From contig OZ024743.1 of NCBI GenBank assembly GCA_964016885.1, forward strand, positions 341,682,001-341,746,000: a stretch of 64,000 nt of DNA, in the 5' to 3' direction. Under the pieces are notes generated by a model. It was not told the origin of the DNA. It did no database searches and was given only the letters and a program-made list of their open reading frames with translations. Position numbers and translations under genes: made by a program. This stretch comes from Eledone cirrhosa. Lineage: Eukaryota. Positions 8,637-58,914 of this stretch are shown here, one piece after another (the stretch's first letter is position 1; each line of letters begins with the position of its first letter).

Positions 8637-9339
8637 CCCTACCTGGATTTGCGACCGATAGATGTTATCAGCATTGGTAAGACTATTGGAAATATTGTTT
8701 TCTCGTATCGATTTGGCGAACAACAATCGACTGACAATATATATATGGGTGTGTGTTTGTGTATACTGCATACATATATACATATATAATATAGAACATT
8801 CAGTAATATTCTTTATTAGTGGAAGTGGTACTAATGTGAGCGCTTGACACCATAGCAGTAAATATTTAATTTGATGCAAGTTTCATTTTAATACGCCTTT
8901 ATTAAATATCAACCTTTACATATGTTCCACGGATGATTGATTCGAGATATGTATTGATATGATAGATCTGATACTAGCATCGATCTACTTCTGAGTTGCA
9001 TGAAGTGAATTCATCATTGCGTTGGATCATAGGAAAGGTAGTCGCGAGTGTATCTAAGATTGCTCATGATTACATGGGCACTTTCAAGACTAGCGAAAGC
9101 ATGTTACACGGTACTACATCATACTCAATTTCTATTGACGGCTGTAATTGTAGAATGTATATATATTTATATATATATACGTTTAAATTTGGGGGGAATT
9201 GTAAAGCACTCGACGTTATGTAACTGATTCATCTTTGATGCTGAATCATGTTGGTGGTGCGGGAACGGAGTAAATATATTATAAAGTGAAATGACAGGAG
9301 GCCAAATATATTGAATTTCCCTAATTATTTATTTCTGCA

Positions 9340-9800
9340 AACACTATGCACACTTCAGTTGCCAGGTTGCGTAAGAACCCTATATATATATATATATATG
9401 TGTGTGTGCAAATGATTATAATATAACGGTGATGAATTTGTTTTGCAAGGTTATTTATATTAAATCGTGTGTTGAAACAAATATTGTTATATTTGAGGAG
9501 GATCATGTTATAATATTGCCAGAGCTTTTTCGTCACACACCTGCGAAATCATCAGTGAAACTGTTATGTTTCATCTGCTGATGTCACAGGTGTGTGACGA
9601 AAGAAATCTAAGAGACTATATTTATATCTATATATAACTTTTGGTCAATCAATGATGAACATTTAAAGCCAGCTAAATTAATTATAGAAATACAAAATAT
9701 ACTGCAGCGAAAACCAACCCAAACCAAACAATGAGTGTATTTTATTATATATTTCTGGCAATATTTAACATGAGCCTCCCCAAATATAACAATATATATT
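9340..9800. mobile_element. Degraded inverted pLTR pair (family C) with hammerhead remnants
   Basis: TTTCGTCACACACCTG (9527) and CAGGTGTGTGACGAAA (9587) form an inverted pair. The minus strand reads CTGATGA-TTTCGCAGGTGTGTGAC-GAAA-AAGC-TC. Confidence 0.6.
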
Positions 9801-9819
9801 ATTCCACTATCGATTTGTG

Positions 9820-9965
9820 AAGGCGCATGGCTTAGTGGTTAGAACATTGGGATTGCAATCGAAAGGTTATGAGTTTAATTCTCTGAGCGAATAATGTTTT
9901 GTTTCCTTGAGCAAGACATTTTTTTTTCACGCTGCTCCAGTTTACTCAGCTGTAGAAATGAAATG
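9820..9965 (+). mobile_element. tRNA-derived SINE, family 2
   Basis: GGCGCATGGCTTAGTGGTTAG...TCCTTGAGCAAGACA...GCTCCAGTTTACTCAGCTG. Confidence 0.7.
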
Positions 9966-10309
9966 ATAGGACTAGGGTCCCTATCATTAAATTACCCAAG
10001 ACACCTCCAACGAGATATACCTTGAAGGAGGCCAACTAAACCTGCATAGGTGTGAGCTATTACTTTGGGTAAGGTGAGAAAAGCTCAAAGCATTCTTAAG
10101 GTGTTCACCACGTAAGGGATTTAAAACAATCGAAATAATCTCCCGAAGTTTAAAGTTTTTTGCTGTTAAAGTGAAGGGAATTAATGTTTTAAATTTAATC
10201 CATCTTTAATATCTACAATAGTTTCTTCACCCATGATAAGCTTACATGTACATGCAAACAACGTTATAACTAATTAACAATTATTAACAATTATTTATAC
10301 AATATGGGA

Positions 10310-54962: not shown

Positions 54963-54973
54963 ATATATATATA

Positions 54974-56380
54974 TGAATAAAGTTAATATATCTGAGGGTA
55001 CAAGGTACCCCCAGAAATATATATAGGTTGTCTATGATTCAAGGAGGTTCTATGGTAATAATTTGATATACCAGAACTTAATATCAAGATAAGCAGAACA
55101 AGCAAAATTCAACCAATTTTTCAAAATAAATCAAAAATAATTTACAATTAAAATTAATCAAAATTAAAAAATATAATATAAATATTTACCTATTCAAATA
55201 GCCCTTACTGTACAGTTTCACTTTGCAAAACATGAGATATCACATGGATATTAATGGAAAAACAAAGATCATCAGAGAAGCATTTTCCTTTCCTAGGGTT
55301 AAAAACCTCAGGAACGATAAAATATATGACCTCGTCTCCAACTGACACGAGTCTAAAGGTCGTAAAAGTGACCCGTATGTTCGCTGGTGTGAAGTGAAGG
55401 CGGGAAATCGTAGACTTGTTGTCTATAGTCGCCACTAAAAAAAATAGCAGCTAATTAGAACGACAGATTTGTTCTCTACATAACGGAGAATAATGAATAA
55501 AGTTAATATATCTGAGGGTACAAGGTACCCCCAGAAATACATAGGTTGTCTATGATTCAAGGTGGTTCTATGGTAATAATTTGATATACCAGAACTTAAT
55601 ATCAAGATAAGCAGAACAAGCAAAATTCAACCAATTTTTCAAAATAAATCTAGGAAAGGAAAATGCTTCTCTGATGATCTTTGTTTTTCCATTGATATCC
55701 ATGTGATATCTAATGTTTTGCAAAGTGAAACTGTACAGTAAGGGCTATTTGAATAAGTAAATATTTATATTATATTTTTTAATTTTGATCAATTTTAATT
55801 GTAAATTAATTTTGATTTATTTTGAAAAATTGGTTGAATTTTGCTTGTCTGCATATCTTGATATTAAGTTCTGGTATATCAAATTATTACCATAGAACCA
55901 CCTTGAATCATAGACAACCTATGTATTTCTGGGGGTACCTTATACCCTCAGATATATTAACTTTATTCATTATTCTCCGTTATGTAGAGAACAAATCTGT
56001 CGTTCTGTCTAGCTGCTATTTTTTTAGTGGCAACTATAGACAACAAGTCTACGATTTCCCACCTTCACTTCACACCAGCGAACATACGGGTCACTTTTAC
56101 GACCTTTAGACTCGTGTCAGTTGGAGACGAGGTCATATATTTTATCGTTCCTGAGGTTTTTAACCCTAGGAAAGGAAAATGCTTCTCTGATGATCTTTGT
56201 TTTTCCATTAATATCCATGTGATATCTCATGTTTTGCAAAGTGAAACTGTACAGTAAGGGCTATTTGAATAGGTAAATATTTATATTATATTTTTTAATT
56301 TTGATTAATTTTAATTGTAAATTAATTTTGATTTATTTGGAAAAATTGGTTGAATTTTGCTTGTTCTGCTTATCTTGATA
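54974..56380. mobile_element. Non-coding 516-521-bp unit as two head-to-head partial tandem arrays, with hammerheads
   Basis: About 1.3 units on the minus strand (54974-55650) and 1.4 on the plus strand (55650-56380). ORFs 55205..55435(-) and 56027..56257(+) are near-identical. Confidence 0.85.
55665..55745 (+). ncRNA. Type I hammerhead ribozyme with an extended helix II (copies at 56181-56261 + and 55201-55281 -)
   Basis: GCTTCT-CTGATGA-TCTTTG-[CATTGATATC..GATATCTAATG hairpin]-CAAAGT-GAAA-CTGTACAG-TA^AGGGC; loop III is a perfect palindrome. Confidence 0.75.
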
Positions 56381-56842
56381 TATATATATATATGTATATA
56401 TACATGTATGTATGTGTTTCTAAAATGAATAAAAATGTCGTGTTTCAATAATTAAAAACACACACCATAATGAAAGTTCTGCGATAAATTCCGAGCTATT
56501 AATAATATAAATTCAAGAGCGAATTAGATATATTAGAATATATCAAACAATATACAGGAGATATTTCGCAAAAAATGTAAGTGCATATCAACTAGAAATG
56601 AGCAATATAGACAGTTTAACAATAAAATAAGCAAACGGTGCATGCTGAACACCAAATAATTATTTTACTCTCTCATACATAATACTTTCATGGCTATAGA
56701 ATTATGTTTCTCTTTCGAATCGTGAAGATCATAAGGTAAGTAGGTGCAGTAGTTAGAGAGGGCTAACTAAATATGAACTCACACCATTAAACAAATCTAA
56801 GGTCTGGCCAATAACACATGGAGTTAAGAAATAACACCACGT

Positions 56843-57315
56843 TGACGAATACCAATAGTATGAAACAGAGATCTGTCAGCTTATCTCCCTTGTTTGTTGA
56901 AAAAAGAAATAAGTAACATAGTCGCTACTTTAAAATGATAGCGTAAGGTCTTCAAAATGTTTTAAATTAAGTATACAGTGTATTGCCAAATATGCGATAG
57001 ATCTCTGTTTCATATATACATCGCTATTTCAGAGCACCAATTCTAATTTTCAATTTTTGCTGGACCGGCAACCGCTCTGTATAATCAGTTCCTGATTATT
57101 ACTGAAATTCTATAAGAATCCAACATTTATAATTTTCAACAAACAAGGGGAGTGCTAGGCTCTGACGAATACCAACAGTATGAAACAGAGATCTGTCAGC
57201 TCATCTCCGTCTGTTTGTTGAAAAAAGAAGTAAGTGACATAGTCACTACTTTAAAACAATAGCGTAAGGTCTTCAAAATGTTTTTAATCAAGCATACAGT
57301 GTATTGCCAAATATA
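56843..57315 (+). mobile_element. Non-coding ~320-bp unit, about 1.5 tandem copies with hammerheads; retrozyme-like
   Basis: TGACGAATACCAA(T/C)AGTATGAAACAGAGATCTGTCAGCT occurs at 56843 and 57163; the element ends in (TA)n. Confidence 0.8.
57133..57224 (+). ncRNA. Type I hammerhead ribozyme with a long helix I
   Basis: GGCT-CTGACGA-ATAC-CAACA-GTAT-GAAA-CAGA-GA-TCTG-TC^AGCT, closed by TTTTCAACAAACA/TGTTTGTTGAAAA. Confidence 0.9.
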
Positions 57316-58914
57316 CTATATATACATATATATATATATATATATATATATATATATATATATATATATATATATATATATATATACATGTGTGTGTGTG
57401 TATGAATATGTAAGTATGCCAGGTCGCTCTTTAGGAATACTGGTAACATTTAACCAAGTACAAACCGTGCATGGTTGGTTTGTCGGTGACTAAATCGGCA
57501 ACCCACCAAGCTTGCTTGGTGAGAAGGGTGATTTTGGACGCACTGAGGGATGAACACCAAAACACGTCAAAGGACGGAGGAACTCACGAGGGTCAACAGC
57601 TATCCAATAATGTATGTACATAAGTATATATGCTTTTATATAATGCATATATTTTTATTCATAAATACATTTCAATCAATTTCATTTTTTAAATAGATGA
57701 TCTGTGATGGGAATGTATGTATGTTATCTCTTTCTCTTAATTTCGAGTATATTTATTTGACCGGCCACCTTCTCCCCATAACGGCATTCCTGTTTTAACG
57801 ACATCACAACTTTCTCCGGCTTAGCCTGTTCCCCCCCTTTTTGGAACTTTCCCCCGTTGATGGGCGTGAGCCCGAAATATTGGGATTAAATCTCCACTAC
57901 GGTAACCCTTCTACCTTTGTTTTGTTTTCATCTTTGTCTCTCTCAATCTTCACTTTCTCCTATTTCTCCTATCTATCATTCACTTCCTACCTCGAGATTT
58001 CCCTTCTGCATTGTTGTGGCTTTCTAAACTACGTATTATATATATATATATATATATATATATATATATATATATATATATATATATATATATATATATA
58101 TATATCACTTATCAAACTATCAGAATAAAAGATTACAGTTAAAAATGCAATTAAAAAAACAACGAAGTCAGAAAAAATCATAGTCAGAAACATGTAATGT
58201 TAGTTGTTTGTGTTTCTTGGAGAAAACTGAAGTTTATAGTGAAAATCATGGTGATATTTGTATTAAAGCTTTTCCTTTAAGAAAACCTTTAACGCAACTA
58301 ACACTATTTGCGTGTGTGTTGTATTGCTATAAATACCCAGAAGATAAGAGAGAATGCAACATATGAGACGCGTTGTAACGCATTATATTATGAATTAATC
58401 TACCTCAAAATTGTCATTGCACGATATATGTTTTATCGCTGTAAGTTTGGGAACTTGACTGACGCGAAATCCTTTAAAGTTCGTTCTGGTAATGACAATA
58501 ATGATGCAATATTAGTGCGTCATCATTATTGTCTTTGGAACAGGTAATAGAACGTTCAGGTTCACCACTACTGGAGATTTTCTGACATGGAAAAGTTTTA
58601 CTCTTTGAATTCTGAAGCCATAATGGACAAGTCTTTCACTTGAATCTGTTCTAACCACAAATAAAATAACCTCGAAATTTTCTCCTATTTCTCCTATCTA
58701 TCATTCACTTGCTACCTCGAGATTTCCCTTCTGCATTGTTGTGGCTTTCTAAACTCCGTATTTTACACATTTCAATATGCTTCAAGCAAACTTTAACACC
58801 CTCATATATATATATATATATAACGAAGGAAATGTGGTAAGGAACCAGGTGGACCATAACGCACCAAAGTACTCAATACTTAGGGTAGTAGAGTGGGTAA
58901 TAGAAACGAGTAGG

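Follow-up and report, generated by a model that had tools for sequence, protein, structure and literature searches.

The Eledone cirrhosa window and its Hydra-clade element

We analysed a 64,000-nt stretch of Eledone cirrhosa DNA (contig OZ024743.1; hereafter the window), AT-rich animal DNA from a 3.0-Gb assembly that is rich in microsatellites and in Penelope-like element (PLE) remnants. A first-pass annotation of the window had pointed to a small bulged hairpin in the 3′ tails of the pseudo-long terminal repeats (pLTRs) that these elements carry. We report here that this hairpin is a real, selected, clade-wide and apparently undescribed structure, a new cis-acting motif in an already known clade, the Hydra clade of PLEs. 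It occurs as two hairpins, H1 and H2, which in intact junctions between the pLTR and the open reading frame (ORF) both sit between the hammerhead ribozyme and the start codon. Where copies of the element end in (TA)n, they nearly always do so at two places, site A just 5′ of H1 and site B just 5′ of H2. The window holds one such junction, in front of a broken ORF for a reverse transcriptase (RT):

62678..62701, minus strand: H1 of a Hydra-clade PLE whose pLTR-ORF junction is intact, with site A about 5 nt 5′ of the hairpin
62602..62623, minus strand: H2, in the GCTC/GAGC form, 54 nt past H1, with 65 nt left to the ATG and with site B about 3 nt 5′ of the hairpin
62724..62816, minus strand (approximate bounds): hammerhead of the same family, with C3 opposite A8 in the window copy and U3-A8 in the tandem copy L283
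61382..62536, minus strand: 5′ part of the broken ORF, a Hydra-clade RT with RWR and DKT; the ATG is at 62536
60370..60957, minus strand: CxCx5C linker and part of the GIY-YIG endonuclease of the same element
58871..58894, minus strand: H1 in a 3′ pLTR of this family; the arm stops in (TA)n at site B, 48 nt further on

Both the window ORF beside 62678 and L283, the most abundant Hydra family, carry RWR and DKT, which are marks of the Hydra clade as defined in the excerpted text of PMC8557442. Both also carry the CxCx5C linker (CNC-x5-C; in the window within 60370-60957), ahead of the C-terminal GIY-YIG endonuclease part. Pfam gave no GIY-YIG match for the 60370-60957 frame, and the endonuclease was assigned from its motifs and from about 40% identity to relatives, among the best 120 of the 869 that a protein search found. 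A hammerhead in the pLTR and insertion in (TA)n, which likewise define the clade, are found as well, the hammerheads being predicted from sequence. L283 consists of intact 3.53-kb units in tandem and has a U3-A8 variant of the hammerhead core about 110 nt before each H1; a variant of the U3-A8 type is described in the excerpted text of PMC4209133.

Alignment of 32 relatives led to 78 metagenome loci, picked by protein alone, which together with six published consensus sequences, inspected by eye, make up our cross-species set. In the metagenome loci (259 kb) the motif occurred 72 times in the sense orientation and 3 times antisense. Where 135 nt or more preceded the ORF (49 loci), 37 held both 3′ halves, seven held one and five held none, the 3′ half of H1 being scored within 135 nt and that of H2 within 70 nt of the ORF start. 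The motif was also seen in three of the six consensus sequences of PMC8557442 File S7, from coral and sea cucumber Hydra elements (Hydra-2_Amil, Hydra-1_Ajap, where it occurs twice, and Hydra-2_Ajap); Hydra-1_Crog, from a copepod, has a degenerate form, and inspection of the Hydra-1_Amil and Hydra-1_Obim consensus sequences gave no clear copy. Among the viral contigs searched there was no relative.

Pattern searches of the E. cirrhosa genome returned 429 and 899 pLTR-ORF junctions, against 0 and 18 for the controls. A Hydra ORF stood behind H2 in 14 of 15 junction clusters (56 fetched junctions, several clusters being near-duplicates), with H2 located 16-65 nt upstream of the ATG. The hairpin had been ascribed to otherwise dissimilar pLTR families; where this could be tested, all of them belong to one clade, Hydra. 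For the families of 9208 and 50967, the junction searches gave no pLTR-ORF junction that links either to a Hydra ORF.

A bulged hairpin with a variable lower stem

All eight hairpins of the first-pass annotation are present at the positions it gave, which take in at most one flanking base per side, and so are its two looser matches (14544-14572, minus strand, and about 53965-54002). Their consensus can be written RCTC-Y..R-TN-GAGY-RC. A strict scan of the window gave 12 matches, namely these eight and four more, all on the minus strand: 62678-62701, 38564-38587, 54113-54141 and 39782-39812, the last of which lies antisense within an RT remnant and is a probable chance match. Hairpins of the window are as follows, those of the element above and of the paired insertions below being given there:

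34564..34585, plus strand: H1, 105 nt past the hammerhead core at 34459; the arm ends 65 nt on and has no inverted partner within 3 kb
38373..38392, plus strand: H1 of an arm ending at B, whose inverted partner stops 2 nt before the hairpin position
13374..13423, minus strand: long-loop H1; its family shows both H2 and a Hydra ORF at the junction locus L231
14545..14572, minus strand: H1 of the family of 54113, 100 nt past the hammerhead core at 14642-14672
53965..54001, plus strand: decayed H1; the genome holds, elsewhere, a putative junction copy with an H2
9208..9271, minus strand: long-loop hairpin of an interspersed family, scored at 40 places
50967..51030, minus strand: long-loop hairpin of an interspersed family, 139 nt past the hammerhead core at 51113-51169

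The motif is more frequent than in shuffled background. In 1.064 Mb, made up of the window and of genome stretches chosen by coordinate, a relaxed descriptor found 78 matches; dinucleotide shuffling, done five times, left 14-33, and reversing the sequence left 24. Genome-wide, the pattern TACTCCN{8,30}GTYGAGTGCT matched 32,495 times and its reversed form 18 times.

The lower stem, which had been described as fixed, takes the GCTC/GAGC form in most relatives and in all but one of the H2 types in the genome. The 2-nt 3′ bulge had also been called fixed, but is T-N: among 100 distinct matches it reads TT in 67, TC in 20, TA in 12 and TG in one, the first T being imposed by the search pattern. The 3′ flank is conserved, as ACT in 80 of the 100 (R-C being imposed by the same pattern), and the loop spans about 4-50 nt. 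Individual hairpins are weak: folded with flanks of 10 nt they reach -4 to -14 kcal/mol, and the 4-bp lower stem is missing from the minimum-energy fold of four of 13 window copies. Rfam models gave 129 matches to the window at E<=1, mostly to microsatellites, with none at the gathering score and no ribozyme among them. A 594-nt tandem repeat at L042:7200-8080, also present near 37400 of the window (minus strand), bears a hairpin like H1 together with a second, degenerate copy; L042 gave no ORF match.

Covariation and strand

The upper stem had been said to covary, and this is borne out for three to four pairs, although the stem is often short. In the 100 distinct matches, which were defined by sequence alone and are partly noise, the same search having given 23 antisense matches, Watson-Crick pairing just above the bulge is seen in 86 as compared to 45.5 expected. 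None of 2,000 permutations reached this value, in a test that kinship among the matches inflates. The second pair is Watson-Crick in 62 (28.5 expected), the third in 50 (25.1) and the fourth in 37 (27.1), the fifth is at chance, and controls with slid partners gave 5-21. CTC/GAG is invariant but was the search anchor, and therefore carries no covariation evidence. In H2 the second upper-stem pair is T.T in 18 of 59.

The pair above the bulge of H1 was also placed on an RT tree of 70 rows, all Hydra-like. Of 51 cases, 27 are T-A, 22 C-G and two something else, and along the tree the 5′ base changes 11 times, the 3′ base nine times and the pair as a whole 11 times, with about nine C-G/T-A switches involving both sides. 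The claim of a selected RNA or single-stranded DNA structure 3′ of the hammerhead is thus supported by sequence-anchored covariation and by repeated switches on the tree. Furthermore, G.U forms outnumber A.C forms genome-wide by about 3.4 to 1 (2,506 versus 710 and 3,827 versus 1,153), which points to the sense strand as the one that folds.

Insertions end at sites A and B

To map element ends we kept 37 of the 56 junction references after filtering and sought their copies in the 1.064 Mb. There were 109 homologous copies, of which 65 end at (TA)n, two pass through H2, 40 do not end at (TA)n and two lack a flank. Among the 65 ends in (TA)n, 28 lie at -13 to +1 of H1 (site A), 35 at -13 to -3 of H2 (site B) and two elsewhere. 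The windows of the two sites thus take 63 of 65 ends while making up about 19% of the span. Offsets are uncertain by a few bases because the last bases of the element match the (TA)n repeat. TAT or ATA occurs at -10 to -2 of 58 of 79 distinct hairpins, compared with 20 of 79 at -34 to -26.

The hairpins of the first-pass annotation are H1 copies inside a tail that runs from A to B. A constant distance from hairpin to downstream end was considered and ruled out, this distance being 28-89 nt within the window; what is constant is the distance to the next hairpin. A third end, at L059, proved to be an artefact of two abutting elements. Copies with a full ORF end at A (L145, L191, L200). Four contigs from another organism (L283:4896, run X6) depart from the sequence of the L283 family at site B and continue in (TA)n. 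With the motif, tens of thousands of repeats of the E. cirrhosa genome can be annotated to their exact ends.

The two arms of an insertion mostly stop at different sites

In the most abundant family, the opposite arms of one head-to-head insertion stop at A and at B. Over 1.664 Mb we typed 90 A ends and 94 B ends, and the 38 head-to-head pairs among them, from six reference families, comprised 36 AB, one AA and one BB (p 2.7e-9 versus one half). A reference-free test gave a similar picture: of 82 hairpin-bearing arms, 46 were partnered, and the partner ended at A in 37, at B in four and elsewhere in five. The four B-ending partners include one pair counted twice, and all lie more than 750 nt away. 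In the subset L001-L030 the partner ended at A in 15 cases and at B in one, and 13 arms were unpartnered. This use of A and B on opposite arms identifies the known one-sided tail of PLEs with the A-to-B segment, which bears H1.

Paired insertions in the window are:

38513..38720: two-arm insertion; the minus arm, with H1 at 38564-38587, ends at B and the plus arm at A
41899..42080: two-arm B+A insertion of the family of 38513, with a decayed H1
51922..52125: two-arm B+A insertion of a subfamily related to 38513
26214..27289: two-arm insertion; the plus arm (hammerhead core 27106-27147, H1 27213-27232) ends at B and the minus arm at A
18021..20190: two-arm insertion with a Hydra-like endonuclease remnant; the plus arm, with H1 at 20062-20100, ends at B and the minus arm, which is longer, at A
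54051..54542: two-arm insertion; the minus arm, with H1 at 54113-54141, ends at B and the plus arm at A
4322..4755: two-arm B+A insertion with hammerhead cores at 4381-4421 (minus strand) and 4571-4611 (plus strand) and a decayed H1

The short copies at 38513-38720, 41899-42080 and 51922-52125 turn back 55-70 nt before H1, within the region of hammerhead stem II.

Twenty of 46 pairs are uneven, and in these the extra sequence is on the A arm in 12 and on the B arm in seven, with one undecided. A hand-read subset had suggested that the A arm is always longer; the rule-based test, with its 12 to 7, gave this no support. A longer A arm cannot be templated by the cDNA from B, and site A is therefore probably primed on its own, unless a later deletion trimmed B.

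A proposed role in priming

By the logic of target priming, which is established for R2 and L1 and has been demonstrated in vitro with Poseidon_Ac, copying begins at what becomes an arm's sense 3′ end. Judging from where the ends fall, the twin hairpins probably anchor the RT a few bases 3′ of where copying would start, at one site for each cut strand of (TA)n, and the earlier guess of an RT-recognition or priming element fits the end mapping. H1 and H2 would be the Hydra form of the 3′ RNA element of Poseidon_Ac, one for each start. The element protein would bind both hairpins, probably on a single RNA, its endonuclease would cut both strands of (TA)n, and the U/A stretch ahead of each hairpin would pair, over 2-4 nt, with one of the cut 3′ ends. 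Two cDNAs, one from A and one from B through H1, would then join at their far ends, leaving a head-to-head insertion in which one side bears the tail with H1. Since each hairpin would be left uncopied by the event that it directs, site B would need a read-through or circular RNA carrying H2, and such a requirement would tie mobility to tandem arrays.

More tentatively, and with some doubt on our part, programmed double priming may be the normal route of the Hydra clade. A protein dimer would clamp one RNA via the two bulged hairpins of about 20 nt, each subunit would prime one cut strand at its own hairpin, and both would copy the same template. If true, this would account for the inverted arm, for the tail on one side only and for the requirement for tandem or circular RNA; it would also provide a minimal portable RNA handle for inserting a chosen sequence into (TA)n.

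A different account has priming occur once, at B, after which the cDNA folds back and copies itself, H1 serving in the cDNA or in an RNA-DNA hybrid as a stop or endonuclease-resolution signal and A being only an end point. Self-priming has been proposed for inverted PLE copies (excerpted text of PMC3846280) and endonuclease resolution for the tail (excerpted text of PMC8557442), and fold-back predicts both the strict pairing of A with B and the 26 symmetric pairs among 46. We nevertheless regard it as unlikely. In 12 pairs the A arm has from 59 to about 1,130 nt that are absent from the B arm and that a B cDNA could not template unless B was later deleted, while full-ORF copies end at A, the G.U bias favours the sense strand, and a single motif would need two opposite roles. 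It is rather more doubtful that the hairpins direct RNA cleavage or 3′-end formation at their base, with ordinary end-initiated target priming from two RNA 3′ ends. The ends do lie near the hairpin base, and offsets of 2-13 nt could reflect slipping to the nearest TA; but two RNA species should make about half of the insertions AA or BB, where we observed two of 38, Poseidon initiates internally regardless of the RNA 3′ end (excerpted text of PMC11167929), and the 129 weak Rfam matches include neither one at the gathering score nor a ribozyme. Least credible, and in our view very improbable, is the view that the motif serves the 5′ untranslated region (UTR) as a promoter or in translation control, with ends falling near it merely because the adjoining DNA is TA-rich. 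The position of H2, 16-65 nt upstream of the ATG, would suit this, and pLTRs are thought to hold promoters (excerpted text of PMC11167929). Compensatory changes and loops of about 4-50 nt speak against a duplex DNA site, however; 63 of 65 ends crowd into two windows that make up about 19% of the span, and the pairing of A with B would be left unexplained.

Priming at two hairpin-marked sites has its own difficulties. Among typed ends, 108 of 184 have no paired arm, and 36 of the 82 B arms of the reference-free test have no partner within 3 kb. The 26 symmetric fold-backs of the 46 pairs are more simply explained by a self-copying cDNA, and the A arm is longer no more often than chance (p 0.36), so that two enzymes in line on one RNA are at most a possibility. 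A further 40 of 109 copies do not end at (TA)n, many of them looking like alignment breaks in diverged subfamilies. On well-supported (starred) branches of the RT tree there are just four independent pairs of changes, none of them opposite, which is too few for a sign test, and the G.U counts are driven by few amplified families, distinct relatives having about 22 G.U to 15 A.C. In vitro, Poseidon gave no difference in start site between the strands (excerpted text of PMC11167929). Finally, in one hammerhead family the two ends are separated by 56 nt and pair head to head, and the tail is without the RCTC/GAGY hairpin; such pairing without the motif means that the two-site layout is wider than the hairpin:

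32549..32829 and 42094..42311, minus strand: hammerhead family with the 56-nt tail, also at L048, L064, L076, L104, L125 and L305

Elements without the hairpin

Beyond Hydra the comparison covered Neptune-type, Naiad and Chlamys elements and other hammerhead families, with Nematis and Poseidon unsampled. As a feature of pLTR families in general, the motif does not hold, being absent from several other hammerhead families and from one Neptune-type family. Several large families among the 153 hammerhead-like cores that precede (TA)n lack the hairpin, as judged by a loose descriptor and with A-type ends being without it by definition. The Neptune-type family L282, whose units are 4.7 kb in tandem, has neither a 3′ half nor a CTGANGA core in its 1.1-kb junction. 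This young family (L282:862-7948, L284; window 30837-32135, minus strand) has an extra 455-codon ORF just before its 784-codon RT-endonuclease frame. Canonical endonuclease-bearing PLEs have one ORF. For window 30837-32135 the term Neptune-type rests on the Cx2-5CxxC linker (excerpted text of PMC8557442), with no use of a tree. In the Naiad and Chlamys consensus files, 18 8-mer matches yielded one hairpin, single and mid-UTR: in the 3′ UTR of Naiad_Mmer (PMC8557442 File S5, seen in excerpt), well paired and about 170 nt past the stop, it is probably a chance match.

Two tandem arrays of the window stand apart. Three units of about 423 nt at 35472-36617 (plus strand) each hold a minimal hammerhead (cores at 35566, 35990 and 36412) and are retrozyme-like, with no hairpin seen in relatives, and a 565-nt unit at 1-1430 occurs in three copies that are 97-98% alike.

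Comparison with known systems

The first-pass annotation knew of no description of the hairpin, and none was found in searches of full-text literature, a coverage outside which most subscription papers and Repbase notes fall. Our elements resemble the Hydra clade of Craig et al. 2021 (PMC8557442, in its excerpted text) in RW[KR], DKT, CxCx5C, the pLTR hammerhead, the (TA)n targets and the inverted arm with a one-sided tail. They differ in that the main text there names no hairpin and attributes the tail to endonuclease resolution, and in tail length, about 60-100 nt in E. cirrhosa versus 30-40. The choice of ends in PLEs and the inverted arm with its one-sided tail have long been noted, with the mechanism unsettled (excerpts of PMC3846280 and PMC8557442). 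The motif offers a testable cause for this known layout: with a doubled, covarying motif common to Hydra elements of cnidarians, echinoderms and E. cirrhosa, the question of end choice could be put to the test by a few point mutants.

A single PLE protein has been studied in vitro, that of Poseidon_Ac (Frangieh et al. 2024, PMC11167929, in its excerpted text), which cuts and extends both strands. Two internal RNA start sites bound its tail, and RNA about 55 nt 3′ of the starts is required. The genomic ends of the Hydra elements fit such a layout: two putative internal starts bound the tail 3′ of the hammerhead, the RNA motif lies 3′ of them, and both strands would be involved. However, Poseidon has both starts in a single AC-rich stem-loop of the ORF, whereas the Hydra sites lie outside and 5′ of two separate 5′-UTR hairpins, and the excerpted text gives no assignment of strand to site, whereas Hydra arms use different sites. 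The Poseidon_Ac RNA, as given in the text of Fig. S1 alone, lacks RCTC/GAGY and shares no sequence with the motif.

Twin priming of L1 (excerpted text of PMC12016303) is similar in that the element RNA is copied from primers on both target strands, giving two opposed cDNAs per insertion. There it is a minority event (18-22%) with an unfixed second start and a short overlap (median 12 bp), whereas in Hydra both presumed starts are fixed and marked by structure, and the arms overlap widely. Two-strand priming as in L1 would fit 36 of the 38 typed pairs and the 12 longer A arms, but 26 of 46 pairs are symmetric.

Small bulged stems that position an RT on its template are familiar from the 3′ stem-loops of long and short interspersed elements (LINEs and SINEs), from hepadnavirus epsilon and from the template-flanking helices of telomerase RNA. 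The Hydra motif differs from these in lying 3′ of the presumed start, in being doubled, in being omitted from the copy that it would direct, and in lacking any sequence or Rfam match. Because the RTs of PLEs and of telomerase are sister groups, a structure by which a short primer-pairing site is set at a distance of a few bases would bear on the origin of template definition.

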